Assembly (NCBI GenBank): GCA_021803085.1
Contig: JAJZMD010000017.1
Coordinates: forward strand, 11,393 to 75,392
Direction: 5' to 3'
From: Actinomycetes bacterium
Lineage (GTDB): Bacteria; Actinomycetota; Acidimicrobiia; Acidimicrobiales; RAAP-2
Length of the DNA stretch: 64,000 nucleotides
This document shows, in pieces, positions 1 to 11,810 of the stretch. The notes below the pieces were generated by a model. That model ran no database searches. It was not told the DNA's origin and worked only from the letters and a program-made list of their open reading frames with translations. Positions within the stretch are counted from its first letter, which is position 1, and every line of letters begins with the position of its first letter. The translations under genes and the position numbers were made by a program.

Positions 1-1385
1 CGCCCCGCCACGCGACGCTCGCGGAGGCGCCGCACGGCGCCCGCCACCTCCCGGGCGACGAAGGACGCGTCCACCGTGACGAGCTCGCCGTCTTTCACCA
101 CCGCTCGTCCCCCGACGAGCACGAGCGACAGCGGCGGGCGGGCACCGAGGGTCAGCGCGGCGACGGGGTCCTCGATCCCCGCATTGGAGACGGTGTCGAC
201 GCGCCAGAGCGCGACGTCCGCGAGCTTGCCCACCTCGAGCGAGCCGAGCTCGTCCTCGCGCCCCAGGCAACGTGCCCCTGTCATCGTCGCCATCCTGAGC
301 ACCTCCCGGGTACCGAGTGCGCGGGCGCCGGCGCGCGCTCTCGCGGTGAACAGCGCCCCGCGCAGCTCGTTCCAGAGCTCCCCCGACTCGTTGGACGCGG
401 AGCCGTCCACCCCGAGGCCGACCGGGACCCCGGCGGCGAGGAGCTCGGGCACGGGCGCCGAGCCCGCGCCGAGGCGCCCGTTCGAGCTCGGGCAGTGCGC
501 GACCCCGGTGCCCGTCGCGCCCAACATCGCGCACGACCTCTCGTCCAGGTGGACGCCGTGCGCGACCCAGACGTCGGCACCGAGCCATCCGAGCGACTCT
601 GCGTACTGCGCCGGCGTGCAGCCGAGACGCTCCGCGCAGTACGCGTCCTCGTCGGTCGTCTCAGCGAGGTGGGTATGGAGCCGGACGCCGCGCGTACGCG
701 CGAGCTCGGCGGCACCGACCATGAGCTCCTTCGTCACCGAGAACGGCGAGCACGGCGCCACCGTGACGCGCACCATCGCGCCCGGTGACGCGTCGTGCCA
801 CCGAGAGATCGCGTCGTCGGTCGCAGCGAGGGCCGCGTCGGTGTCCTCGACGACGTCGTCGGGCGGCAGGCCTCCCGCAGACTGGCCGAGGTCCATCGAC
901 CCTCGCGCGGGGTGGAAGCGGAGCCCGACGAGAGCCGCAGCCTCGATCTCCGCGGCAAGGAGGTCGCCGCCGCGCTTGGGGAACACGTACTGGTGGTCCA
1001 TCGTGGTCGTGCAGCCGCTGGTGGCGAGCGCGAAGAGCGCGCCGAGCGCGGCGACGTGCTCGAGCTCTGCTGTGACGCACGCCCACCATGGATAGAGCTC
1101 GGACAGCCAGCTGAACAGCTCGGAGTCGGGCGCCATGCCCCGCGTCAGCCACTGCGAGAGGTGATGGTGGGTGTTGACCAAGCCGGGCGTGGCGAGGCAT
1201 CCGGCGGCGTCGACCCGACGGGCCCCCGCGGGCACGGCCGATTCGGGCGCAGGCCCCGCGCCCACCGCGGCGATGCGCCCGCCGGAGACGACGAGATGGC
1301 CCTCGGAGTGCTCCGTCCCCGCTGCGTCGACGGTCGCGACGGCAGCGCCCTCGATCACCCAGTCCGGCGCGTCGGAGCCGCCCAT
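1..1385 (-). CDS. amidohydrolase-superfamily deaminase (8-oxoguanine deaminase/chlorohydrolase-like); 3' end runs off the window
   Basis: Own translation of the minus strand from ATG at comp(1383..1385): MGGSDAPDWVIEGAAVATVD..ATPGLVNTHHHLSQWLTRG..VAPCSPFS..RLHTHLAET..AHGVHL..GVDGSASNE. The frame stays open to base 1, so it is absent from the ORF track. ORFs listed here (76..1095+, 661..1458-) are Arg/Ser/Pro-rich wrong-frame artefacts. Confidence 0.8.
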   Translation of the reverse strand, partial: MGGSDAPDWVIEGAAVATVDAAGTEHSEGHLVVSGGRIAAVGAGPAPESAVPAGARRVDAAGCLATPGLVNTHHHLSQWLTRGMAPDSELFSWLSELYPWWACVTAELEHVAALGALFALATSGCTTTMDHQYVFPKRGGDLLAAEIEAAALVGLRFHPARGSMDLGQSAGGLPPDDVVEDTDAALAATDDAISRWHDASPGAMVRVTVAPCSPFSVTKELMVGAAELARTRGVRLHTHLAETTDEDAYCAERLGCTPAQYAESLGWLGADVWVAHGVHLDERSCAMLGATGTGVAHCPSSNGRLGAGSAPVPELLAAGVPVGLGVDGSASNESGELWNELRGALFTARARAGARALGTREVLRMATMTGARCLGREDELGSLEVGKLADVALWRVDTVSNAGIEDPVAALTLGARPPLSLVLVGGRAVVKDGELVTVDASFVAREVAGAVRRLRERRVAG

Positions 1386-1447
1386 ACGGTGGCGACTGTA
1401 GTTTCCCGCTTGTTGACAGCCGGCCGGGGCTCGGCCAGGCTGCTCGG

Positions 1448-2482
1448 GTGGGCGACACGACGCCCGGCCTCGTCTGCGGGCACCATCACCTCTACTCGGC
1501 GCTCGCGCGCGGGATGCCGGCGCCGCCGCGCACCCCCTCGACGTTCACGGAGATCCTCGAGCAGATCTGGTGGCGCCTGGACGTCGCGCTCGACCTCGAG
1601 ATGATCCGGTGGTCGGCCATGCTTGGCGCGTTGGAGGCGCTCGAGTGCGGCACCACCGCGATCGTCGACCACCACGAAGGGCCGTCTGCCATCGAGGGGA
1701 GCCTGGACGTCATCTCGCAGGCCTGCGCGGAGGTCGGCGTACGCGTGCGCTGCTGCTACGGGGTCACCGACCGGCACGGGCCCGACGGCGCGCGCCGGGG
1801 GCTCTTGGAGAACGAACGGTTCCTGCGGGCTGGGGGCGCGGGGATGGTGGGCATCCACGCCGCCTTCACGTGCACCGACGAGACGCTCGAGGCAGCTGCG
1901 GGCCTCGCGAGAGACCTCGGCGCCGGTGTCCACGTCCACGTGGCAGAAGGCGAGGTCGACGCGGGCGCGCCCGCACGCCTCGGCCACCTCGTCGCAGACG
2001 ACTGGATCGTCGCGCACGGAGTCCACCTCCCCCGCCCCGTTCCCCCGAAGTGGGCCGAGACGACCCTCGCGCACTGCGCGCGGTCCAACATGAACAACGG
2101 CGTCGGGTACGCGCGTCCGCGCAGCTGGCCAGGCCGCGTGGTGCTCGGCAGCGACGGCATCGGCGCGGACATGCTGGAGGAGTACCGGATCGCGTATGTC
2201 AGGGCGCGCGAGCACGACGTCTTCACCACCCCGGTCGAGGCCTGGGCGTGGCTCGAGGAAGGCTGGACGCTCGTGCCCGAGTCCCGCTCGGACCGCGTGC
2301 GCTGGAGCTACGACAGGGCCGACGACCCGTGGTGCCTCGCGTTCACGCCGGGGGTGCGCGCGCTCGACGTCTGGGTCGACGGAGCCCAGGTCCTCGCATC
2401 TGGGGCGGCGACGCGCGTCGATTCCGCAGAGGTGCGCGCCCGCGCCGCCGAGCAGGCCCGTCGGCTGTTCGAGCGCCTCTGA
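1448..2482 (+). CDS. SsnA-like putative aminohydrolase (amidohydrolase superfamily)
   Basis: 344 aa. N-terminal GHHHLYSALARGM metal-ligand motif, HVHVAEG, LGSDG. Divergent from the previous amidohydrolase across a 62-bp gap. Confidence 0.8.
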   Translation: MGDTTPGLVCGHHHLYSALARGMPAPPRTPSTFTEILEQIWWRLDVALDLEMIRWSAMLGALEALECGTTAIVDHHEGPSAIEGSLDVISQACAEVGVRVRCCYGVTDRHGPDGARRGLLENERFLRAGGAGMVGIHAAFTCTDETLEAAAGLARDLGAGVHVHVAEGEVDAGAPARLGHLVADDWIVAHGVHLPRPVPPKWAETTLAHCARSNMNNGVGYARPRSWPGRVVLGSDGIGADMLEEYRIAYVRAREHDVFTTPVEAWAWLEEGWTLVPESRSDRVRWSYDRADDPWCLAFTPGVRALDVWVDGAQVLASGAATRVDSAEVRARAAEQARRLFERL

Positions 2483-2499
2483 GGTCTGCAGGCGCCGGG

Positions 2500-3117
2500 T
2501 CAGGCGTCAGAGGACGAGCGGGTCGCGTTCAGGTAGTTGTAGACGGTCACGCGGCTCACGCCCATTGCGTCGGCCACCTCGTCGACCGCGTTCCGGATGG
2601 CGAAGGCTCCGCGCTCGTCCAGCATGCGCACGGCGCGCTGCTTGTCGACCCGGCTCAACGCCGCGAGCCGCCCCCCGAGCTCCGACTCGATCTGGGCGAC
2701 GAAGCTCGCGAGACCCTCGCGCAGATCGCGCGGCGAGGGGAGCTCCAGCCCTCCCACCACGCGGCCCTTCCATACGAGAGGGACGGCGGCGGCGCCCATG
2801 CGCTCGGCGGCCACGACTCGGCCCCCGAGCGCGCGCACGATCGGGCGGACCGCAGCGAGGAAGGCTTCCGCGTCCTCTCCGCCAGTCGCCCGTGCGGTCA
2901 TGGTGATCCCCGAGGCCCCGGCGTCGAACGAGGCGGCGGCGGCTCGGGCCACCGCCTCGAGGAGCGGGCGGGCCTCGCCCTCGACGGCGTTGCCGAACGG
3001 GCCGACCTCGGGGTCGAAGCCCTCCGAGCGCAGCGTCTCGAGCGCGGCGGTGACGTGCGCGCCCAGCTCTCCCTCGCGGAACGGCTCCACGGTGAGCTCC
3101 ACCCGCACGTGCCGCAT
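2500..3117 (-). CDS. transcriptional regulator: DUF77/YkoF-like ligand-binding domain fused to YheO/DauR-type C-terminal HTH
   Basis: 205 aa from ATG comp(3115..3117), preceded by GGGAGGGAG about 6 nt upstream; the ORF-track start at 3312 looks over-extended. N-terminus MRHVRVELTVEPF..LGAHVTAALETLRSEGFDPEVGPFGNAVEG resembles the MTH1187/YkoF fold. C-terminus LDERGAFAIRNAVDEVADAMGVSRVTVYNYLN resembles YheO-family HTH. Confidence 0.6.
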   Translation of the reverse strand: MRHVRVELTVEPFREGELGAHVTAALETLRSEGFDPEVGPFGNAVEGEARPLLEAVARAAAASFDAGASGITMTARATGGEDAEAFLAAVRPIVRALGGRVVAAERMGAAAVPLVWKGRVVGGLELPSPRDLREGLASFVAQIESELGGRLAALSRVDKQRAVRMLDERGAFAIRNAVDEVADAMGVSRVTVYNYLNATRSSSDA

Positions 3118-3219
3118 CCCGCTCCCTCCCGGCGTCGCAGGGCTCTGCCCATTCCCTCCCGACATCGAGGTCACCTCACCTTGCGCCTGTTCCGCTCCGG
3201 CCTCCGAGATCCATGACGC

Positions 3220-3298
3220 CCGGAGATCGACGGTGATGGCCGGAGATCGACGGCCGGACATCGACGACCGGACATCGGTGACGGACGGTGACGGACGG
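3220..3298. repeat. cluster of degenerate direct repeats in divergent promoter region
   Basis: CCGGAGATCGACGG at 3220 and 3240; CCGGACATCG at 3254 and 3268; GGTGACGGAC twice at 3277-3296. Confidence 0.6.
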
Positions 3299-3303
3299 CC
3301 AGA

Positions 3304-3322
3304 GGTTGACAACCAGTCAACC
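3304..3322. promoter_or_regulatory. perfect 7-5-7 palindrome GGTTGAC-AACCA-GTCAACC (candidate operator)
   Basis: Read directly. Lies between the divergent regulator (start 3117) and the operon start (3362). Confidence 0.5.
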
Positions 3323-3326
3323 TACC

Positions 3327-3341
3327 TTGACAGATCGTCAA
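3327..3341. promoter_or_regulatory. second palindrome TTGAC-AGATC-GTCAA (candidate operator)
   Basis: Same TTGAC/GTCAA half-sites and the same 5-nt spacer as the 3304 site, 4 nt downstream of it, about 20 nt upstream of the GTG start at 3362. Confidence 0.5.
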
Positions 3342-3361
3342 AGAGAAGGCAAGTTTGTGTT

Positions 3362-4600
3362 GTGGACTTGGCGGTAGACGCCGCGCGACTCCTCTCCCGT
3401 CTGGAGGAGCTCGGACGCATCGGTGCCACCGGGGACGGGGGGTGCGCCCGTCTGGCGCTGACCGACGAGGACCGGGAGGGCCGGGACCTGGTGGTCACCT
3501 GGATGCGGGACCTCGGGCTGGACGTGCAGGTGGACGCGATCGGCAACGTCGTCGCCGTGCGCGAGGGCCGGGAGGCCGGTCCGCCCGTCATGTGCGGCTC
3601 GCACGTCGACACGGTGGCGACCGGCGGCATCTACGACGGCAACCTCGGTGTGCTCGCGGGCCTCGAGGTGCTCGAGACCCTGGCGTCGGCGGGCGTCCTC
3701 CCGCGCCGCCCGATGGCCGTCGCGTTCTTCACGGACGAGGAGGGAGCGCGCTTCGCGCCGGACATGCTCGGGAGCCTCGTCTACGCCGGCGGCATGGGCG
3801 TGGAGGAGGCCTACGACCTCGTCGGGATCGACGGCGCGCGCCTCGGCGACGAGCTCGCGCGCATCGGCTACCTGGGGAGCCTCCCCTGCCCGGGTCTGGT
3901 GCCGCACGCCTACGTCGAGCTCCACATCGAGCAGGGCCCCGTCCTGGAGGCGAACGGCGAGGTGATCGGCGCCGTCACCGGGGTCCAGGGGATCTCCTGG
4001 CAGGAGGTGCGGTTCGGCGGTCAGTTCAACCACGCCGGCACGACGCCCATGGCGTACCGCCACGACGCCGGGTTCGCCGCCGCGCAGGCGGCGGTCGCGG
4101 CCCGGGCGCTCGCTCGCGACCTCGGCCCGCCGCAGGTGGCGACCGTCGGCAAGCTCGACCTGCGCCCGGGTCTCGTGAACGTGGTCGCCGGCGCCTCCGC
4201 CCTCACCATCGACCTTCGCAACACGGACGGCGACATGCTCGCAGAGGCTGAGCGCCGCATGGCCGCCGAGATCGACCGGATCTCGGGCGACGAGGGGGTG
4301 ACGGTCGAGCGCCGCCAGCTCGCGCGCTTCGACCCCGTCGAGTTCGACGAACGGATCGTCGGCCTGGTGGAGGAGACCGCGCGCGCGCACGGCCACCGGG
4401 TGCGGCGGCTCCCGTCGGGCGCGGGGCACGACGCGCAGATGCTGGCGCGACGGTGCCCGGCGGGCATGGTCTTCGTCCCGAGCGCCGGCGGCATCAGCCA
4501 CAACCCGGCTGAGTTCACCTCCCCCGAGCACCTCGAGGCAGGCGCCAACGTGCTGCTCCACGTGCTGCACCGGCTGGCCGAAGAAGACGTCCTCTCGTGA
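3362..4600 (+). CDS. M20-family Zn-dependent amidase, hydantoinase/carbamoylase type (allantoate amidohydrolase / N-carbamoyl-L-amino-acid hydrolase-like)
   Basis: 412 aa from GTG 3362, with GAGAAGG about 12 nt upstream; the ORF-track start at 2597 is wrong-frame upstream extension. Motifs: RLALTDEDREGRDLV..DAIGNVV..GSHVDTVATGGIYDGNLGVLAGLEV..FTDEEG. Confidence 0.85.
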   Translation: MDLAVDAARLLSRLEELGRIGATGDGGCARLALTDEDREGRDLVVTWMRDLGLDVQVDAIGNVVAVREGREAGPPVMCGSHVDTVATGGIYDGNLGVLAGLEVLETLASAGVLPRRPMAVAFFTDEEGARFAPDMLGSLVYAGGMGVEEAYDLVGIDGARLGDELARIGYLGSLPCPGLVPHAYVELHIEQGPVLEANGEVIGAVTGVQGISWQEVRFGGQFNHAGTTPMAYRHDAGFAAAQAAVAARALARDLGPPQVATVGKLDLRPGLVNVVAGASALTIDLRNTDGDMLAEAERRMAAEIDRISGDEGVTVERRQLARFDPVEFDERIVGLVEETARAHGHRVRRLPSGAGHDAQMLARRCPAGMVFVPSAGGISHNPAEFTSPEHLEAGANVLLHVLHRLAEEDVLS

Positions 4601-5520
4601 GCCGCCGCGTCGTCGTCGCCGCCGCGCAGCTCGGCCCCATCGGGCGCGACGAGCCGCGCGACGCGGTCGTGGTCCGGCTGCTCGCGCTGCTGCACGACGC
4701 GCACCGGAAGGGAGCCGAGCTCGTGGTCTACCCCGAGCTCGCGCTCACGACGTTCTTCCCGCGCTGGTGGACCGAGCCGCTCTCGGGCGCTGACCACTGG
4801 TTCGAGACCGAGATGCCGGGACCGGCGACGAGACCGCTCTTCGAGGAGGCGGCCCGCCTCGGCGTCGGCTTCTTCCTCGGTTACGCCGAGCTCACGCCCG
4901 ACGGCCACCGCTACAACAGCGCGGTGCTCGTGGAGCGGGACGGATCGGCCGTCGCCACGTTCCGCAAGGTCCACATCCCCGGCCACGAGAAGCACGAGCC
5001 GTGGCGCCCGTTCCAGCACCTCGAGCGGTACTACTTCGAGCCCGGGCCCGACGGCTTCGGGGTGTGGGACGCGTTCACAGGGCGCGTCGGGATGATGATC
5101 TGCAACGACCGGCGGTGGCCCGAGACCTACCGGGTGATGGGCCTCCGGGGCGTCGAGGTGATCCTCTGCGGCTACAACACCCCGATCCACTACGCGCCCG
5201 ACCCCTCCCAGGACGCTCTGGCTGCGTTCCACAACCACCTCGTCATGCAGGCGGGCGCGTACCAGAACGGCACCTGGGTCGTCGCCGCGGCGAAGGGGGG
5301 GCTGGAGGAGGGTGTCGACTCCCTCGCACAGAGCGCGGTGATCGCGCCGTCGGGCCAGGTCGTGGCGCAGGCGCTCACCGCCGGAGACGAGGTGGTCGTC
5401 GCCGAGTGCGACCTCGACTGGACCGCGCGGTACAAGAAGACCCTCTTCGACTTCGCCCGGTACCGGCGTCCGGAGGTCTACGGCGTGATCTGCGAGCGAC
5501 CCGAGGAGGAGGCACGATGA
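4597..5520 (+). CDS. carbon-nitrogen hydrolase (nitrilase superfamily), N-carbamoyl-D-amino-acid/beta-ureidopropionase-like
   Basis: 307 aa. VAAAQLGPI..ELVVYPELALTTFFPRWW..RKVHIPG..MMICNDRRWPE (Glu-Lys-Cys triad context). GTGA overlap with the upstream stop. Confidence 0.85.
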   Translation: MSRRVVVAAAQLGPIGRDEPRDAVVVRLLALLHDAHRKGAELVVYPELALTTFFPRWWTEPLSGADHWFETEMPGPATRPLFEEAARLGVGFFLGYAELTPDGHRYNSAVLVERDGSAVATFRKVHIPGHEKHEPWRPFQHLERYYFEPGPDGFGVWDAFTGRVGMMICNDRRWPETYRVMGLRGVEVILCGYNTPIHYAPDPSQDALAAFHNHLVMQAGAYQNGTWVVAAAKGGLEEGVDSLAQSAVIAPSGQVVAQALTAGDEVVVAECDLDWTARYKKTLFDFARYRRPEVYGVICERPEEEAR

Positions 5521-8150
5521 CCGTCGTCGGACAGGACGTCGTCGGACAGGACGTCGTCGACAGGGACGTCGTCGTCTTCACGGTCAATGGCGATGAGGTC
5601 GCCGTCCGTGCGGACCACCCGCACCTCCTCTCCGCGCTGCGCGAGGAGCTCGGGATCACCTCGCCGAAGGACGGCTGCTCACCGTCGGGCCAGTGCGGCT
5701 GCTGCACGGTCATGATCGACGGGAAGGTCCAGGTGAGCTGCCAGTACCCGCTCGAGAAGGCGGCCGGGCGCACCGTGGTCACGCTCGAGGGGCTGGAGGA
5801 GACAGAGCGCCGCCGCTACGCCGCCGCGTTCGCCGCGGCCGGCGGGCTCCAGTGCGGCTTCTGCATCCCCGGCATCGTGATGCGCGCCAAGGCGCAGCTC
5901 GACAAGAAAGGCGGCGCCCTCACGCGCGAGGACATGGCGCGCCACCTCGGCGCGCACCTCTGCCGCTGCACCGGCTACGTGAAGATCCTCGACGCGATCG
6001 ACGCGCTGTCCAAGGGGGCGTCCCCTGCGCTGCCGTTGCAGTCGTACGCCGGCGTGGGGGCACGGCTGGCGAAGTACGAGGCCGAGCCTCTCGCACTCGG
6101 CGATCGCGGGTACGTCGACGACCTTCGCGTGCCCGGCCTGCTCCATGCGGCCCTGCGCTTCACCGATCACGCCCGCGCCGAGATCGTCGGGATCACCACG
6201 TCGGCCGCGGCGGCGGCACCCGGCGTGGTGGCGGTCTTCACCGCGGCCGACGTGCCCGGGGAGCTCCGTGTCGGGATCATCGAGCGCGACTGGCCGGTCT
6301 TCGTCCCGGTGGGTGGGCGCACCTCGTACGCGGGCGACGTCCTCGCCGTCGTGGTCGCCGAGAGCCGGCTCGAGGCGAGGGCGGCCGCCTCCCTCGTCGA
6401 GGTGGAGTACCGGGACCTCGGGCCGCTGACCGACCCCGTCGCGGCGATCGACTCACCCGAGCTGGCCGTGTGGGGCACGGAGTCCAACGTGCTGTCGCGC
6501 TCGGCGTACGTCCGCGGCGACGTCGACGCGGCGTTGGTGGCGAGCGCCCATCTGGTCCATGAGGTCTTCGAGACCCAACGCGTCGAGCACGCCTTCTTGG
6601 AGCCCGAGTCCACCCTGGCGGTGCCGAGGGACGACGGCGGCCTCCACGTCTTCTCCGGCGGCCAGGGCGTCTGGGACGACCGCAACCAGATCGCCTCGGT
6701 GCTCGGCGTCGGCGCCGACGCCGTGAGCGTCGAGCTGGTCTCGAACGGCGGCGCGTTCGGCGGCAAGGAGGACATGTCCAACCAGGCCCAGACGGCGCTC
6801 TGTGCCTGGCTCCTGCGCCGGCCGGTGAAGTGCACGCTCACGCGTGAGGAGAGCTTCCTCGTGCACGCGAAGCGCCATCCGATCCGTATGGAGTACTGGG
6901 CGGGATGTGACGCCGACGGCCGGCTCACCGGGCTGAGGGCGCGGATGGTGGGCGACTCCGGCGCGTACGCGAGCGTCGGCATGAAGGTGCTCGAGCGTGC
7001 CGCTGGCCATGCGACCGGGCCGTACCGGCTCCCCGCCGTCGACGTGGAGGCGATCGCGGTCCGCACCAACAACCCGGTGTGCGGCGCCTTCCGCGGCTTC
7101 GGCGCGAACCAGGCGCAATTCGCGATGGAAGGGGTGATCGACCGCCTCGCGTTGAAGGCAGGCCTGAGCGGCTTCGAGATGCGCAAGCGCAACGTCGTCC
7201 ACCCCGGCGACGTGTGGGGGCCCGGCCAGGTGATGGACGAGGGCTGCGCGGGCGCCGAGCGCTGCCTCGACGCGCTCGCGGACCGCTACGAGGCCGCCCG
7301 GGCGGACGGGAAGGCCGTGGGCATCGGCCTCGGCCTGAAGAACAGCGGCCTGGGCAACGGGTTCTGCGAGGTGACCCGGGCGGTGGTGCGCTTCTGCGAG
7401 GACGGCACCGTCGAGGTCCGCCACGGGTGGACCGAGATGGGCCAGGGTGTGCACACCGTGGCGTTGCAGGTCGCGGTCGAAGAGCTCGGCGTGGACCCCG
7501 CCCGCGTCAAGGTGGTGGTGGACACCTCGCGCGAGCTCGGCGAAGGCCAGACCACCGGCAGCAGGGGGACGCTCATGGGCGCGGGTGCCGTCGCGGACGC
7601 GTGCCGCAAGGCGTTGGCGGGAGGTCGCGCCCCTGGGGTCGACTACACCGGAGAGCACCGCGTCGACTGGACCCAGCACATCGGCGAGGTGGAGCACCCG
7701 ACGATCCACTCGGCGTTCGGCTACGCCGCTCAGCTCGTCGTCATGGACCGTGACACGCTCACGGTCGAGCGGGTGGTCGCCGCGCACGACGTCGGCCGTG
7801 CGGTGAACCCGATGCTCTGCGAGGGCCAGGTCGAGGGCTCGGTGCACATGGGCCTCGGCTACGCGCTGACCGAGGAGTTCCCCGCGGACGAGCGGGGCTT
7901 CCCGACGAAGTCGACGCTCCGGTCGCTCGGGATCCTGAGGGCGAAGGACGTCCCGCCCGTGGAGGTCCTCCTCGTCGAGGTGCCCCAGCCGCGTTCCCCG
8001 TACGGGATCAAGGGCGTCGGCGAGATCGGGCTCGTCCCGACCGCCGGGGCGGTCGCTGCAGCCCTGCACGACGCGGACGGGGTCTGGCGAACGAAGCTGC
8101 CGATGCGCACCGGAACGCCGGCGCGCGACGGGGCAGGCGACGGCGAGTGA
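5517..8150 (+). CDS. XdhD-like molybdopterin hydroxylase with fused N-terminal [2Fe-2S] domains
   Basis: 877 aa from ATG 5517 (ATGA overlap; the track start at 5001 lies inside the upstream gene). [12 protein letters not shown] and CGFCIPG..CRCTGY iron-sulfur motifs, then aldehyde-oxidase/xanthine-dehydrogenase domains ([22 protein letters not shown]). Confidence 0.85.
5523..5567 (+). repeat. in-frame 15-bp tandem repeat x3 (GTCGTCGGACAGGAC) coding [15 protein letters not shown]
   Basis: Two perfect copies plus one variant, directly after the start codon of the XdhD-like gene. Confidence 0.9.
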
Positions 8151-9142
8151 GAACCGCGCTCTACCTGCAGGACGCGCACTCCATCCGCGACGGCATGGGC
8201 CACGTCGCCTACGCGGAGTCGCGCGGTTTCGAAGCCGTCTGGCAGGCGGAGAGCCGGCTCGTCCGAGAGGCGACCGTGCCGCTGGCGGCCTACGCGGCGG
8301 TGACCGAGCGCATCAAGGTGGGCTCCGGCGTCTCGGACTGCTGGTCGCGCAACCCCGCGCGCCTTGCGGCCACCTTCTCCACCCTCGACGACCTCGCCCC
8401 TGGCCGCGCGGTGCTGGGCATCGGCGCCTGGTGGGACCCGCTCGCCGCCAAGGTGGGCATCACCCGGACGCATCCCCTCACCGTCATGCGCGAGGTGGTG
8501 ACCGTGGTGCGCGCGCTGCTCGCCAACGAGAAGGTGACCTTCCACGGTGAGTGGGTCCACCTGACAGGCGTCGAGCTCGACTACGTCTACCAGGAGCGCC
8601 GGCCGAAGGACGTGCCGATCTACGTCGGCGCGACGGGCGACAGGATGCTCGAGCTCGCCGGCGAGATCGCCGACGGCGTCGTCTTGAATTACCTCGTCTC
8701 CCCCGATTACAACCAGCGCGCGCTCGAGCACCTCTCCATCGGCCTCGAGCGAGCCGGCCGGGTCCTCGCGGATCTCGACCGCCCCCAGCTCGTGGTCTGC
8801 TCGGTGCACGAGGACGAGAAGACCGCGCTCGACATGGCGAGGCTCATGGTGACCCAGTACCTCGGGCAGCAGCCCCACATCATGCGTGCCTCCGGCGTCC
8901 CGCAGTCGCTCCTCGACGCGGTGGGCGAGGTGCTCACCTGGCCGGCGACCCATGACGAGGTGGAGGCGGCCTCGAAGCTCGTCCCCGACGAAGTGGTCCG
9001 CATGCTCACGGCGTCGGGCACGCCGGACCAGGCCCGGGCACGGGTGGCGGACTACGTCGCGCACGGGTGCACCTGCCCGATCCTCTACCCGCTGGGCGAC
9101 GTCGGCCAGATGATCGACGCGTTCAGCGGGTGGGCGCCGTGA
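8147..9142 (+). CDS. LLM-class (luciferase-like) flavin/F420-dependent oxidoreductase
   Basis: 331 aa. [48 protein letters not shown] overlap with the upstream stop. Confidence 0.8.
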
Positions 9143-10419
9143 GCTTCGGGTTCCGGGCGGTCCTCAACCCTCTCGCCCAGCCGGACCAGACGCCCCCCGA
9201 CGGCGCGGCTGGGGGCGGCGCGGCTGGGGGCGGCGCGGCTGGGGGCGGCGCGGCTGGGGGCGGCGCGGCTGGGGGCGGCGCGGCTGGGGAGGCCGCATCG
9301 GGAGGCTCGGGGGGCGCCGCCGTCCTCGCCTTCCACCGCCGGCTGCCCGCCTACGAGCCCACGCCGCTCCTCTCTCTCCCCCACCTCGCCTCGGACCTCG
9401 GTGTTCGCGAGCTGCTCGTGAAGGTCGAGGCGGGCCGCTTCGGGCTCCCGGCCTTCAAGCTCCTCGGGGCCTCCTGGGCGACCCACCGCGCGCTGCGCAT
9501 CCGGCTCGCCGAGCGGACCGCCAGGAGCCCGGACGACGTGCTCGTCGAGTGGGCGGACGTCCACGAGCTCGCCCGCCTCGTGGAGCCGCTCCAGCCGCTC
9601 CGCCTCGCCGCGGCGACCGACGGCAACCACGGGCGCGCCGTGGCCCGCATGGCGCGCTGGCTCGGCTTCGACGCCACCGTCTTCGTCCCTGCCGGCACGA
9701 CGGAGACACGAATCGCCGGCATCGAGTCGGAGGGGGCGACGGTCGTCGTCGTCCCTGGCAGCTACGACGACGCGGTCGCGCGGGCCGCCGCGGAAGCGGG
9801 CGAGCGATGCCTGGTCGTCAACGACACGAGCGGGCCCGGCGACGTCGACGTCCCGCGATGGGTCGCCGAGGGGTACGGCACCATGTTCGTGGAGGTCGAC
9901 GAGGCACTGGCCCGGGCCGGCCGGGGCATCCCCGGCGTCGCGCTGGTGCCCATCGGTGTCGGCGCGCTCTGCGCCGCGGCCATCTCGCACTTCCGCCGCG
10001 GCCGGCATCCGGTGCACGTGATCGGCGTCGAGCCGACCGGTGCCGCCAGCATGACGGCGTCCGCGCTGGCCGGAAAGCCGGTAATGGTGGTGGAGCCCTG
10101 CTCGATCATGGCGGGTCTGAACTGCGGGACGCCCTCGCCGGTCGCCTGGCCCGTCGTCTCTGAAGGCGCCTCGGGGTTCGTCACCGTCGACGACGACTGG
10201 GCGCGCCTGGCGGTTCGTACGTACGCCGCGTGCGGCATCGAAGCCGGCGAGACCGGCGCGGCGGCGCTGGCGGGGCTCATGGCGCTCCTCCGCCAGGGCA
10301 GGGCGACTCCGCTTGCGAGGCACGTGGGCAAGGACGCGTCGGTGCTCGTTCTGGCGACCGAGGGCGCGAGCGACCTCGTCGCGTGGCGGACGATCGTCGG
10401 CACCCAGCTCGTCGGATGA
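9139..10419 (+). CDS. diaminopropionate ammonia-lyase-like PLP-dependent enzyme (fold type II)
   Basis: 426 aa from GTG 9139 (GTGA overlap). [43 protein letters not shown] (Lys of FKLLG as PLP lysine), [11 protein letters not shown]. Confidence 0.75.
9201..9290 (+). repeat. 15-bp tandem repeat x6 (CGGCGCGGCTGGGGG) coding (AAGGG)5-AAGE
   Basis: Five perfect copies and a sixth with one mismatch, in-frame in the N-terminal extension of the PLP enzyme. Confidence 0.95.
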
Positions 10420-10459
10420 CGGTTGACCCGGCGCCGAGTCCGCCTCGCCTCCGGCCGGC

Positions 10460-10975
10460 TTATCGGGTGGCGTCCTCGGGCCGGGACCCGTCCTCTTCGA
10501 CGATCCTGCGAACCTCGCGGAGGATCTCGTCGTCGTCTGCCAGCGCGAACTGGTCGCTCAGCCAGGCCCCCGCGAGCTCGCCCCGGACGCGGCGCAACGA
10601 GCCGTCCGGCCGGTAGACGAGACGCTCGAGGAGCCCGTTGCGCACGACGACGCCGAAGGGCTCGGGGTCCCATCCGGCGCTCGCCACGATGGTGCGGATC
10701 TCTGCGAGCGAGAAGGGTGAGTCCGCCCAGGCCGGCAGCCATGTCATCACCTCGTCGGGCTTTCGCCCCCCCGCCAGATAGCCCATGCGGGCTGTGTCCT
10801 CGGTGAGCACTCCCAGGACGTCGATCAGGCGCCCGTGCCACCCCCTCTCATGAGCGAGCTCGGCGGCGACTCCGGGTTGCACGGCCCCGTTCGCCCTCAC
10901 GTGGTGCGCGAGGGCGTCGGCGACCTCCTCGAGGCTCGGCTCGGACCGGTCTGCGGCGTCGCGCTCGGATTGCAT
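10460..10975 (-). CDS. hypothetical protein (acidic, no recognised domain)
   Basis: 171 aa from ATG comp(10973..10975), with GGAGGGAGGA 6-7 nt upstream. Coding-like composition. Confidence 0.55.
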   Translation of the reverse strand: MQSERDAADRSEPSLEEVADALAHHVRANGAVQPGVAAELAHERGWHGRLIDVLGVLTEDTARMGYLAGGRKPDEVMTWLPAWADSPFSLAEIRTIVASAGWDPEPFGVVVRNGLLERLVYRPDGSLRRVRGELAGAWLSDQFALADDDEILREVRRIVEEDGSRPEDATR

Positions 10976-11106
10976 CCCGTTCCTCCCTCCCCCTGGCCAT
11001 CCGGGGTGGCTGACCCACACGGTAACCCACGTGCCCTCACGAAGCTGCCGACGCGGCCGCCACGCCCACAGGGTCGAACGTCACATGCGGGAGCTCGGCG
11101 TCGACG

Positions 11107-11133
11107 GTGTGCCGGCTGTGCCGGCTGTGCCGG
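11107..11133. repeat. 9-bp tandem repeat x3 (TGTGCCGGC)
   Basis: Read directly; intergenic. Confidence 0.9.
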
Positions 11134-11163
11134 CTGTGTCAGTGTCGTCGGGGTGCCGGGCGT

Positions 11164-11200
11164 GTCGACGTCGGTCTTGACGTCGACGTCGACGTCGACG
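11164..11200. repeat. self-complementary GTCGAC/GACGTC hexamer run (possible hairpin/terminator)
   Basis: GTCGACGTCGGTCTTGACGTCGACGTCGACGTCGACG, downstream of the stop of the minus-strand small ORF at 11240. Confidence 0.6.
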
Positions 11201-11239
11201 AGCCTGCAGAGAGGGACCCGGCTCGCGCGCCAGGTTGGT

Positions 11240-11431
11240 TCAGCGGCGCTCGCCACCCGGCGTGCGGTCGCCGGCAAGGCGTCGCCACCAGCCCCGGGCG
11301 GGCGCGGGAGGTTCGCTCGAGCACCGGCACCGGTCTGCCTTGGGCACCCGAGCGAGCACCTGCTCGACGTGCGCTCCGCAACCCCGCCACGTGGGCCGGC
11401 CGCAGCGCCGGCAGGTCACCGCTCTACACAT
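11240..11431 (-). CDS. small Cys-rich protein (63 aa), possible metal-binding partner of CsoR
   Basis: MCRAVTCRRCGRPTWRGCGAHVEQVLARVPKADRCRC.., 6 Cys in the first 37 aa. G/C-rich third positions. The start codon sits in the operator-like palindrome. It is embedded in a longer wrong-looking track ORF (11240..11725-). Confidence 0.4.
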   Translation of the reverse strand: MCRAVTCRRCGRPTWRGCGAHVEQVLARVPKADRCRCSSEPPAPARGWWRRLAGDRTPGGERR

Positions 11432-11445
11432 ACCCGCTAGGGTAT
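11430..11445. promoter_or_regulatory. palindrome ATACCC-GCTA-GGGTAT (candidate CsoR-family operator)
   Basis: Perfect 6-4-6 inverted repeat, 30 nt upstream of the CsoR-like GTG start. Confidence 0.5.
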
Positions 11446-11474
11446 CATGGTGAGCGTGATCGCCAGCGCGGCAT

Positions 11475-11810
11475 GTGCGGCGCGCAGAGAGCGACGGAAC
11501 TGCAGGGGGACGGCAGCGTGGATCGACCGAGGAGGAAGGCGTGGAGCTCCCCGACGAGGTGGTGAAGGACGCCCGCCGACGTCTGCACCGGGCGGCGGGC
11601 CAGGTGGAGGCCGTCGACAGGATGCTCGCCGAAGGGTGCGAGTGCAAGGACGTCGTGATGCAGCTCTCGGCGGCCACCAAGGCCCTCGAGCAGGTCGGGT
11701 TCAAGATTCTCGCCGCGGGGCTCACCTACTGCGTCGAGCATCCCGCCGAGGCCGCTGAGCAGGGCTACCCGCTCGAAGAGGTCCAGCGCATGTTCATGCG
11801 GCTCGCGTGA
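11475..11810 (+). CDS. CsoR/RcnR/FrmR-family metal-sensing transcriptional repressor
   Basis: 111 aa. RRLHRAAGQVEAVDRMLAEGCECKDVVMQLSAATKALEQVGFKILAAGLTYCVEH (family helix pattern with Cys/His ligand positions). Confidence 0.8.
   Translation: MRRAESDGTAGGRQRGSTEEEGVELPDEVVKDARRRLHRAAGQVEAVDRMLAEGCECKDVVMQLSAATKALEQVGFKILAAGLTYCVEHPAEAAEQGYPLEEVQRMFMRLA

Follow-up and report, generated by a model that had tools for sequence, protein, structure and literature searches.

The locus raises the question of which substrate is broken down by an Acidimicrobiales operon that joins a molybdopterin hydroxylase to an LLM oxidoreductase, two carbamoylases and a diaminopropionate ammonia-lyase. The stretch of DNA analysed here, which we call the window, is 64,000 nucleotides long; its first letter is base 11393 of a contig of 81 kb from an Acidimicrobiales metagenome-assembled genome (MAG). 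The original prediction was of a variant ssnA/xdhD purine-urate cluster in which two carbamoylases are combined with an LLM enzyme that may depend on F420, and our analysis supports that core reading. In gut bacteria, XdhD/DOPDH converts urate to 2,8-dioxopurine ('yanthine'), which is dearomatised by YgfK or UacX; the rings are then opened by SsnA and HyuA, and diaminopropionate is turned into pyruvate by YgeX (Li et al. 2025, PMC12507026; Liu et al. 2025, bioRxiv 10.1101/2025.04.24.650524). The cluster is most likely a rewired form of this oxygen-independent uric-acid breakdown pathway, described in 2025, and most likely two hydrolytic carbamoylases and an enzyme predicted to use deazaflavin (F420) take the place of three of the known enzymes in it. 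We consider it likely that the products of this region degrade urate and purines by a variant of the reductive (2,8-dioxopurine) pathway that is linked to F420 and fully hydrolytic, each proposed step being based on homology and comparative genomics.

Table 1. Features of the cluster, with positions in the window
Feature	Position	Strand	Evidence
Amidohydrolase, 8-oxoguanine deaminase family	3..1385	-	NF006055, 623.7 bits (cut-off 532)
SsnA-type cyclic amidohydrolase, short (344 aa)	1448..2482	+	SsnA models matched over 58-333 of 444
Divergent regulator, Thiamine_BP/DUF77-like ligand domain and YheO-type HTH_22	2500..3312	-	Pfam
Twin TTGAC-N5-GTCAA palindromes, candidate operator	3306..3341	.	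Read from sequence; divergent control region
M20 hydantoinase/carbamoylase-family amidase	3362..4600	+	TIGR01879, 398.6 bits (cut-off 204); NF006769, 452.8 (cut-off 452)
N-carbamoyl-D-amino-acid hydrolase (DCase), CN_hydrolase	4597..5520	+	PDB DCases 8i99, 1erz, E 5e-115 to 2e-106
Fused 2x[2Fe-2S] and molybdopterin purine hydroxylase (Mo enzyme), no FAD domain	5517..8150	+	TIGR03311, 820.9 bits
Mer-like LLM oxidoreductase (PF00296)	8147..9142	+	Pfam; PDB Mer 1z69, E 2.6e-38
2,3-diaminopropionate ammonia-lyase (YgeX-like)	9139..10419	+	NF006058, 282.7 bits (cut-off 276)

The genes, the SsnA-type motif and the four 4-nt start/stop overlaps (GTGA at 4597, ATGA at 5517, GTGA at 8147 and GTGA at 9139, read from the sequence) all lie where they had been placed, and the overlaps point to joint translation of all five genes of the operon. 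No sigma-70 consensus promoter was found in the divergent control region, and the operon is probably controlled by the DUF77-HTH regulator, with the twin palindromes as candidate operator. The true start of the regulator gene probably lies downstream of 3312, and its orthologs adjoin the cluster at five other loci (L008, L047, L052, L053 and L056). Neither this gene nor the palindromes had been listed for this finding in the original prediction.

The description of the Mo enzyme as XdhD-like stands for its domain architecture but not for its family, which by both HMM and tree is of the TIGR03311 type. It scores just below the TIGR03311 cut-off of 830.45, with pucD next at 464 bits, and the tree puts it within a 22-row clade (SH-aLRT 100) of SsnA-linked enzymes that is sister to PucD. 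An E. coli XdhD-type enzyme is ruled out by this placement and by a TIGR03313 score of 181 bits against a cut-off of 1102; nor does the enzyme group with aldehyde or CO dehydrogenases. It retains equivalents of Glu802, Arg880 and Glu1261 of the xanthine dehydrogenase active site, and we predict a urate/2,8-dioxopurine oxidoreductase (DOPDH-like). The reported lack of a FAD subunit is true of the window, but about 5 kb beyond the left edge, at contig bases 2354-6087, there is a complete PucC/E/D xanthine dehydrogenase that includes a FAD subunit, so the lack is partly a window-edge effect. In the genome, the selenium-cofactor trait was not evident, YqeC being absent, the YqeB match weak and SelD explained by an adjacent SelB.

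The best ten PDB matches of the LLM oxidoreductase are all F420 enzymes, and its best NCBIfam matches are F420 LLM families, yet it stays below every F420 family cut-off. The genome's CofD match (310 bits, cut-off 257) indicates that F420 is made, and the closest out-group LLM adjoins CofC; the enzyme probably depends on F420 rather than FMN. Among 18 cluster-bearing Acidimicrobiia, 10 carry the LLM ortholog and 8 carry in the same place a mini-YgfK of 616 aa, while none has both or neither (Fisher p = 2.3e-5, n = 18 genomes, ignoring phylogeny). Both types occur within one genus. We predict that the LLM reduces 2,8-dioxopurine with F420H2, as a functional counterpart of YgfK/UacX.

The short SsnA scores 234 bits against the NCBIfam cut-off of 444 and shares 37% identity with E. 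coli SsnA over residues 56-331. The protein begins ...TPGLVCGHHHLYS, with the SsnA-type GHHHLYS motif, and keeps the HxH, DHH, HxHxxE, H and D ligand motifs and RSNMNN. What is missing, in all Acidimicrobiia SsnA orthologs, is about 60 N-terminal residues and the C-terminal segments of the accessory beta-sandwich domain, leaving a barrel-only form whose predicted role is ring opening of reduced 2,8-dioxopurine. Since this form falls below the SsnA cut-offs (TIGR03314/NF005540), clusters that carry it would probably be missed by IPR017700-seeded surveys. The 8-oxoguanine deaminase-family gene, whose stop codon lies just beyond the left edge of the window, has orthologs in relatives beside the cluster or within the xanthine dehydrogenase operon, and its product is predicted to supply the pathway with urate or xanthine.

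The pathway published in 2025 accounts for the presence of two carbamoylases, since its intermediate 2,3-diureidopropionate carries two ureido groups. The DCase has the catalytic motif MMICNDRRWPE and would remove the 2-ureido group. The M20 enzyme is of the beta-alanine synthase/N-carbamoyl-L-amino-acid hydrolase type; its top-most PDB matches are unnamed family members, and the nearest named chains are N-carbamoyl-beta-alanine amidohydrolase 8c46 (E 1.8e-87), L-carbamoylases and beta-alanine synthase. Comparison with E. coli YgeY gave no similarity. We predict that it removes the 3-ureido group, converting albizziin to 2,3-diaminopropionate. As originally noted, the window has no hydantoinase, carbamate kinase or carbamoyltransferase, but a hydantoinase is present on another contig (C77), in a conserved module of its own with a CN-hydrolase and an LLM. 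Its part in the urate pathway is a guess, because the cluster has none and the unlinked copy belongs to that other module. A strong HyuA ortholog was found in 18/18 cluster-bearing Acidimicrobiia against 3/13 without the cluster (p = 6e-6, ignoring phylogeny).

The PLP enzyme had been called diaminopropionate-ammonia-lyase-like, and it passes the equivalog cut-off; threonine dehydratase models score much lower. It shares 36% of its residues with E. coli YgeX, among them Lys77 and TDGNHGR, and a 15-bp repeat at 9201-9289 gives it an N-terminal (AAGGG)n insertion. It is predicted to catalyse the last step, giving pyruvate and ammonia. Within the cluster it is found at only 5 of the 38 loci that carry the LLM ortholog.

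The gene combination is conserved, as neighbourhood comparison across many Acidimicrobiia shows. Orthologs of the Mo enzyme occur in 36 of 401 Actinomycetota genomes, and the long GTDB loci with an LLM ortholog (n = 38) contain the Mo gene in 33 cases, the short SsnA in 27, the DCase in 26, the M20 enzyme in 25 and PucD in 22. In most relatives SsnA sits between the Mo and LLM genes, and in 8/8 tested genomes whose LLM had no SsnA nearby it was found elsewhere. The same module is common in Acidimicrobiia of lake, ocean and sponge, and the carriers that have names are MAGs from lakes, oceans, groundwater and sponges.

It is conceivable, though unlikely, that the operon breaks down another N-heterocycle with no link to urate, either a pyrimidine or hydantoin (5-aminouracil, a 5-substituted D-hydantoin) or a pterin. 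The Mo enzyme would then hydroxylate and the LLM reduce the ring, and the carbamoylases would end a route resembling the hydantoinase process. DCase and M20 carbamoylases are indeed classic partners of hydantoinases/dihydropyrimidinases, the substrate of Mer, the LLM of known structure nearest to this one, is a pterin, albizziin and diaminopropionate could also arise from 5-aminouracil, and out-group LLMs adjoin other cyclic amidohydrolases. The purine-type active site of the Mo enzyme and its kinship with PucD argue against this, as do clade members that adjoin YgfK and SsnA. Purine deaminases and PucCDE surround the cluster both here and, in relatives, at 22 of the 38 loci. In other Actinomycetota families the Mo gene keeps company with canonical members of the urate set: at L062, XdhABC, Mo, YgfK and SsnA occur together, at L060 and L061 the Mo and LLM genes occur with YgeY, full-length SsnA and YgeW, and at L061 also with diaminopropionate ammonia-lyase, HyuA and YqeA. 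The C77 module, moreover, already provides for pyrimidine-like substrates.

Very unlikely, in our estimate, is an oxidative or mixed pathway, with the Mo enzyme as a second xanthine/purine dehydrogenase and the LLM as a flavin monooxygenase or an unrelated F420 enzyme. The best HMM of the Mo enzyme is named 'selenium-dependent xanthine dehydrogenase', DOPDH is reversible in vitro (bioRxiv 10.1101/2025.04.24.650524), many LLMs are FMN monooxygenases, and many named carriers come from oxic waters. Against this, a complete PucCDE enzyme is already next door, the selenium-cofactor trait is not evident, the closest relatives of the LLM are F420 reductases rather than FMN monooxygenases, and what stands in for the LLM in other genomes is a YgfK-type reductase, never an oxidase. 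OHCU decarboxylase, which marks the oxidative pathway, was searched for in this genome and is absent, a soft absence like that of YgeW because the MAG is 93% complete; it occurs in 1/36 cluster-bearing Actinomycetota against 77/365 others (p = 0.0066, ignoring phylogeny).

F420 is an obligate two-electron hydride carrier, and we know of no direct route from it to one-electron [2Fe-2S] clusters without a flavin. There is only a slight chance that the LLM is the electron-entry module of the Mo enzyme, passing F420H2 electrons to FeS/Mo for urate reduction without itself reducing the heterocycle: the Mo-LLM pair is the most conserved adjacency (33/38 loci), is translationally coupled here and includes a Mo enzyme without a FAD subunit of its own, but the 10 LLM-type genomes, lacking YgfK, would have no dearomatising reductase, and the position of SsnA between the two genes in most relatives parallels the functional coupling of YgfK with SsnA that Li et al. 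report (PMC12507026). Reduction of the heterocycle by the LLM is more likely than electron relay.

In the reductive urate pathway that we favour, purines would be deaminated by adenosine deaminase and the 8-oxoguanine-deaminase-family enzyme and oxidised to urate by the neighbouring PucCDE. The FAD-less FeS-Mo enzyme would remove the 6-oxo group to give 2,8-dioxopurine, and the Mer-like LLM would dearomatise this by hydride transfer from F420H2, a task that falls to YgfK in E. coli and to UacX in C. difficile. The trimmed SsnA would open the first ring, and the unlinked D-hydantoinase/dihydropyrimidinase probably the second, yielding 2,3-diureidopropionate. From this the DCase would take the alpha (2-) and the M20 enzyme the beta (3-) ureido group, before the ammonia-lyase releases pyruvate and ammonia. 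No carbamoyl phosphate or ATP would be produced, unlike in E. coli, and the pathway reads as scavenging of nitrogen and carbon.

Compared with the urate clusters of E. coli (ygeW-xdhD region), C. difficile and C. sporogenes (PMC12507026; bioRxiv 10.1101/2025.04.24.650524), the logic and the predicted end product are the same. Shared features are an FeS-Mo purine hydroxylase that, like the clostridial enzyme, has no FAD domain, an SsnA-type amidohydrolase, a YgeX-type ammonia-lyase, two separate ureido-cleaving enzymes, and xanthine dehydrogenase and purine deaminases as neighbours. The comparison supports four steps being wired differently from the yanthine pathway: the reductase (LLM instead of YgfK or UacX), both ureido removals (a CN-hydrolase DCase instead of YgeW and YqeA or UacY, and an AmaB/beta-alanine-synthase-type M20 enzyme instead of YgeY), the form of SsnA, which lacks the beta-sandwich domain, and the location of the hydantoinase, HyuA being unlinked. 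There is no carbamate kinase and hence no ATP yield, the selenium-cofactor trait is not evident (no YqeC, a weak YqeB-like match), and the host is an Acidimicrobiales bacterium.

The individual enzymes have known counterparts as well. The Mo enzyme matches the Firmicutes-type TIGR03311 over its full length (model positions 3-843 of 848), with the same fused 2Fe-2S and Mo architecture lacking FAD, but lies 10 bits below the cut-off, and labile-selenium cofactor markers are not evident in the genome. Mer, the F420-dependent methylenetetrahydromethanopterin reductase (PDB 1z69, 1f07), is the best solved homologue of the LLM, a TIM-barrel enzyme that passes a hydride from F420H2 to a carbon beside nitrogen in a bicyclic N-heterocycle. 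The LLM reaches 178 bits with the Mer equivalog against a cut-off of 276, and its conserved context is purine catabolism rather than C1 metabolism; JGI labels its orthologs 'methylenetetrahydromethanopterin reductase', probably a name carried over by homology. Among the enzymes of the hydantoinase process, those of the Agrobacterium type are close homologues of the DCase, and a D-hydantoinase ortholog is present in all carrier genomes tested; the M20 enzyme resembles the beta-ureidopropionases of the reductive pyrimidine (Pyd) pathway. Unlike in those systems, both stand here in one operon with a Mo hydroxylase, an LLM and a diaminopropionate ammonia-lyase, the hydantoinase being elsewhere with its own CN-hydrolase. 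The closest precedent is in another phylum: in Chloroflexota SsnA neighbourhoods, Li et al. (2025, PMC12507026) noted by bioinformatics that PF00296 'putative F420-dependent' genes adjoin SsnA in the place of YgfK/UacX. The likeness is at the PF00296 level, and the reading as an F420-dependent yanthine reductase is common to both. The DCase/M20 replacement and the complementarity of LLM and mini-YgfK are not part of that description, and the Acidimicrobiales cluster is therefore a further variant of an arrangement already noted by Li et al.

The gene cluster at the start of the window probably encodes a rewired form of the reductive 2,8-dioxopurine pathway of urate breakdown, judging from its protein families and from genome comparisons. 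The reference pathway was worked out in 2025 and has been discussed as a medically interesting trait of the anaerobic gut (Li et al., PMC12507026; Liu et al., bioRxiv 10.1101/2025.04.24.650524). These two studies describe the reduction of urate to 2,8-dioxopurine by XdhD or the urate/2,8-dioxopurine oxidoreductase (DOPDH), dearomatisation of 2,8-dioxopurine by YgfK or UacX, ring opening by SsnA and HyuA to give 2,3-diureidopropionate, and conversion of diaminopropionate to pyruvate by YgeX. At the family level the identities of the cluster genes are clear (table), and they would map onto this pathway with the LLM oxidoreductase at the reductase step; we infer the substrates throughout. The original prediction of a differently wired variant is supported, the LLM enzyme, an N-carbamoyl-D-amino-acid hydrolase (DCase) and a TIGR01879-type M20 enzyme standing where YgfK/UacX, YgeW plus YqeA/UacY, and YgeY, respectively, would be expected.

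Genes of the cluster, with positions in the window and the evidence for each assignment
Feature	Position	Strand	Evidence
8-oxoguanine deaminase equivalog	3..1385	-	NF006055, 623.7 bits (cut-off 532)
Short SsnA-type amidohydrolase	1448..2482	+	Best family SsnA; model positions 58-333 of 444 matched
Regulator gene	2500..3312	-	Thiamine_BP/DUF77-like domain and HTH_22; absent from the original prediction
M20 carbamoylase-type amidase	3362..4600	+	TIGR01879 hydantoinase/carbamoylase family
N-carbamoyl-D-amino-acid hydrolase (DCase)	4597..5520	+	Solved DCases, E 5e-115, full length
Fused Mo hydroxylase	5517..8150	+	Two [2Fe-2S] domains and Mo domains; FAD domain absent
LLM oxidoreductase	8147..9142	+	PF00296, 211.7 bits
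Diaminopropionate ammonia-lyase	9139..10419	+	NF006058, 282.7 bits (cut-off 276)

Genes were chosen by GC3 and HMMs, the G+C content of the window being 72%. The layout is as originally described: there are two amidohydrolase genes, one on each strand, of which the plus-strand gene opens with the SsnA-type N-terminus ...TPGLVCGHHHLYS, and five plus-strand genes are chained by overlaps (GTGA at 4597, ATGA at 5517, GTGA at 8147 and GTGA at 9139). Twin TTGAC-N5-GTCAA palindromes lie at 3306-3341, between the operon and the regulator gene that faces it. A scan of positions 1-11500 for consensus promoters and terminators found none, a null that is uninformative at 72% GC. Two in-frame or coding repeats were seen in the operon: a 15-bp tandem repeat of 3.5 in-frame copies right behind the start codon of the Mo gene (5522-5574), and a perfect 15-bp repeat of 5.9 copies (9201-9289) that codes for (AAGGG)n inside an N-terminal insertion of the ammonia-lyase, which E. 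coli YgeX lacks. A convergent 206-aa ORF follows the operon on the minus strand (10460-11080); it has no Pfam or NCBIfam family, and its sole further match is a partial one of 44 aa on another contig of the genome (C46).

The Mo enzyme had been described as an XdhD-like [2Fe-2S] and molybdopterin hydroxylase. The domain make-up holds, whereas the XdhD type does not: the protein matches TIGR03311, the model of selenium-dependent Mo hydroxylases, over its full length with 820.9 bits, slightly under the cut-off (830.45), and the pucD model with 464 bits, as against 181 bits for TIGR03313, the E. coli XdhD type (cut-off 1101.9). Orthology to E. coli XdhD is ruled out by this score, by 24% identity (tblastn) and by placement in a different clade. 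A tree built from 40 Mo subunits places the enzyme in a 22-member clade (SH-aLRT 100) of SsnA-linked enzymes that is sister to PucD-type xanthine dehydrogenase (XDH), with E. coli XdhA and XdhD and the genome's own CoxL-like paralogs elsewhere, so the proposed phylogenetic check came out in favour of the purine-type assignment. Rival readings are that the cluster acts on a different N-heterocycle, or that it has an oxidative role; the Mo enzyme retains the XDH (purine-type) active-site equivalents, including KGVGE, and one copy in its clade is flanked by YgfK and SsnA. On the reductive reading it is an SsnA-linked FeS-Mo hydroxylase with a predicted DOPDH/XdhD function. Selenium dependence of the Mo enzyme was rejected as unsupported: SelD adjoins SelB, YqeC has no match in the genome and YqeB has a weak XdhC-like match (tblastn). 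The adjacency of SelD and SelB points to a selenocysteine trait, with no Se-cofactor trait (SelD, YqeB and YqeC together) in evidence. The selB-selD pair lies on another contig (C272, 2415-8311), with a further LLM gene about 2 kb downstream.

The suggestion that the LLM enzyme might be of the F420 type agrees with its closest characterised relatives, and we predict F420 use from them. F420 enzymes make up all of its ten best PDB matches, with Mer in first place (E 2.6e-38), and its 16 best NCBIfam matches are F420 families, each scoring below its own cut-off. The best paralog in the source genome is 33% identical, while orthologs in other classes reach 63-75%. The genome encodes CofD (TIGR01819, 310 bits; cut-off 257.45), so the organism makes F420. 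Neither a YgfK (IPR017701) nor a UacX (PF01180) reductase is found in the cluster, where the LLM enzyme sits at that position, and no YgfK ortholog was found in the genome, tblastn yielding only partial GltD-like matches.

In some Acidimicrobiia the place of the LLM gene is taken by a short form of YgfK that seems not to have been described before, which we call mini-YgfK (for example L049 5445-7295 on the minus strand, and the loci L051 and L052). It has 616 aa, comprising YgfK residues 5-405 and 898-986 and a 4Fe-4S dicluster, and its missing central NAD(P)H/FAD domain would imply an external electron donor. Among the 18 cluster-bearing Acidimicrobiia, ten have an LLM ortholog and eight have mini-YgfK, with none having both and none having neither (Fisher p = 2.3e-5, phylogeny ignored), and both states occur within one genus. 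A third rival reading is that the LLM enzyme is an electron-entry module; we infer instead that it falls on the dearomatising-reductase step of the urate pathway. If this is right, a predicted function fills the gap for a large and highly conserved LLM orthogroup that is now mislabelled 'methylenetetrahydromethanopterin reductase'. Two out-group LLM genes have suggestive contexts on short contigs: the closest (50% identity; L158 208-1901, 48% G+C) is directly downstream of a CofC gene, and the other (L159) lies between two cyclic amidohydrolases.

A profile search for SsnA had been proposed, and SsnA is indeed the best family of the short amidohydrolase, with a partial-length match of 234 bits to TIGR03314 (cut-off 444) and 217 bits to NF005540 (cut-off 455). 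Loss of the accessory domain accounts for scores below these cut-offs. Over residues 56-331 the protein is 37% identical to E. coli SsnA. All aligned Acidimicrobiia orthologs lack about 60 residues at the N-terminus and the segments of the accessory beta-sandwich at the C-terminus, and they conserve the metal-ligand motifs and RSNMNN; on this alignment the short SsnA is best described as a conserved barrel-only subfamily. A pseudogene is ruled out, since more than 10 genomes share the shortening at 54-80% identity and have intact ligands.

The two different carbamoylases that had been noted are both present. Among solved relatives with a name, those nearest to the M20 enzyme are N-carbamoyl-beta-alanine amidohydrolase, L-carbamoylases and beta-alanine synthase. 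E. coli YgeY shows no relationship to it, and the only match of YgeY in the genome (23% identity) is on another contig. The second enzyme is close to solved DCases and has all of the Glu-Lys-Cys triad motifs (YPELALT, FRKVHIP and MMICNDRRWPE). We propose that each carbamoylase would serve one ureido group of 2,3-diureidopropionate, the DCase acting on the alpha group and the M20 enzyme, of beta-alanine-synthase type, on the beta group. The DCase is assigned to the alpha group on account of its D-specificity; HyuA is likewise D-specific, and UacY resembles a D-aminoacylase. The reported lack of a carbamoyltransferase and a carbamate kinase extends to the whole genome, in which YgeW and YqeA have no tblastn match and the DCase is present instead. 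The PLP enzyme passes its diaminopropionate ammonia-lyase equivalog, as expected from the original prediction; it is 36% identical to E. coli YgeX and conserves Lys77 and TDGNHGR.

No hydantoinase was visible to the first analysis, and HyuA is missing from the whole contig of the window. Contig C77 has the sole strong homologue, which is 40-44% identical to the E. coli enzyme, the value varying with the tool, and the pathway would recruit this unlinked enzyme. HyuA is unlinked to the cluster in all 18 carriers examined, and a strong ortholog is present in every one of them versus 3/13 non-carriers in the class (p = 6e-6). A hydantoinase or an extra conserved gene hidden in the cluster gaps of relatives is ruled out: the gap ORFs are an MFS transporter, a methyltransferase and ORFs of no family, homologous neither to one another nor to anything in the source genome. 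On contig C77 this D-hydantoinase/dihydropyrimidinase belongs to a conserved module of its own (4196-7645, behind an ABC transporter), together with another CN-hydrolase and a divergent LLM gene (25% identity to the cluster LLM). In the relatives (L151-L156) the hydantoinase gene has the CN-hydrolase gene as its neighbour in 6/7 and the LLM gene is near in 5/7. This module could encode an LLM-dependent reductive pyrimidine (Pyd-like) pathway.

Just upstream of the window, on positions 1-11392 of the 81-kb contig, the genome encodes a PucC/E/D XDH including its FAD subunit (pucD 887 bits; cut-off 784), an NCS1 permease, a cytosine-deaminase-family amidohydrolase and an adenosine deaminase, so the cluster is part of an island of purine catabolism. 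The same stretch contains an aquaporin-family (MIP) gene and a methyltransferase whose TPMT/TehB-like matches are weak. The absence of a FAD subunit therefore stands for the cluster's Mo enzyme, which has no FAD partner, but is partly an edge effect. No purine permease of the NCS2 or AzgA type was found in the genome, and the one transporter candidate seen is the NCS1 permease that adjoins the XDH. OHCU decarboxylase, our marker for the oxidative route, is absent from this 93% complete MAG.

Mo-enzyme orthologs occur in 36 of 401 sampled Actinomycetota genomes, and OHCU decarboxylase in 1/36 of these carriers versus 77/365 of the others (p = 0.0066); the Acidimicrobiia hosts mostly lack this uricase-route marker. 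The proposed neighbourhood comparison showed the gene combination to be kept, with the core order M20-DCase-Mo-short SsnA-LLM and pucC/E/D often next. A pattern scan of GTDB genomes gave at least 584 LLM relatives, and the best 80 loci bear names such as Ilumatobacteraceae, Microthrixaceae, Iamia, Ca. Poriferisodalis and marine Acidimicrobiales. The 38 of these 80 that span at least 18 kb contain the Mo enzyme in 33, short SsnA in 27, DCase in 26, M20 in 25, PucD in 22, diaminopropionate ammonia-lyase in five and HyuA in one. Where no SsnA lies near the LLM gene, short SsnA was found elsewhere in 8/8 genomes tested. Two loci from other families (L060 and L061) combine the Mo and LLM pair with YgeY, full-length SsnA and YgeW, L061 adding diaminopropionate ammonia-lyase, HyuA and YqeA, and one genome (L062) has XdhABC, Mo, YgfK and SsnA together.

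Three marine Acidimicrobiales loci (L121-L123) have a second, opposite-facing set beside the standard module, made up of another LLM gene, YqeB-like genes, an XdhD-like Mo enzyme and an SsnA-like or 8-oxoG-deaminase-like amidohydrolase, with a YqeC-like gene also in L123; these lineages may carry the Se-cofactor trait. Four public MAG records that bear the title 'Bifidobacterium breve' or 'Bifidobacterium sp.' (L065, L071, L079 and L118) encode an LLM enzyme 77-81% identical to ours, and two of them (L079 and L118) have the full module; the taxon names are almost certainly wrong.

Because pucC/E/D lie directly behind the LLM gene in many relatives, one may speculate that redox coupling links the XDH to the DOPDH-like enzyme. 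A more far-reaching and rather doubtful proposal is that Acidimicrobiia of oxic lakes, oceans and sponges clear purines with neither uricase nor O2: the PucCDE XDH and the FAD-less DOPDH-like enzyme would be redox-coupled, isomerising xanthine (2,6-dioxo) to 2,8-dioxopurine by way of urate and with zero net electron flow, and a dedicated F420H2:2,8-dioxopurine reductase, of a kind not characterised before, would dearomatise the ring. Were it true, this would be the first F420-dependent purine-catabolic step and a major role of F420 in planktonic Actinomycetota, and the parallel LLM, hydantoinase and CN-hydrolase module may do likewise for pyrimidines.

If the reductive reading is correct, a deazaflavin-dependent, ATP-neutral urate pathway is standard in very abundant environmental Acidimicrobiia, among them marine clades, symbionts of sponges and streamlined genomes of 1.5-2 Mb that go by the label Ilumatobacteraceae or Actinomycetota, and purine-nitrogen recycling joins the known roles of F420. 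The LLM enzyme would then offer an Fe-S-free substitute for YgfK, and the carbamoylases hydrolytic stand-ins for YgeW and YgeY, in engineered urate-degrading strains. Surveys seeded with SsnA probably miss such clusters because the trimmed SsnA lies under the family cut-offs. Our literature searches turned up neither an Acidimicrobiia nor an F420 variant, apart from a comment by Li et al. that LLM enzymes of putative F420 dependence are encoded near SsnA in Chloroflexota (PMC12507026). They also gave no account of the two carbamoylase replacements (DCase and M20), the shortened SsnA, mini-YgfK as an alternative or the environmental spread. A putative F420-type LLM enzyme near SsnA had thus been noted in Chloroflexota, and the Acidimicrobiia form appears to be new.
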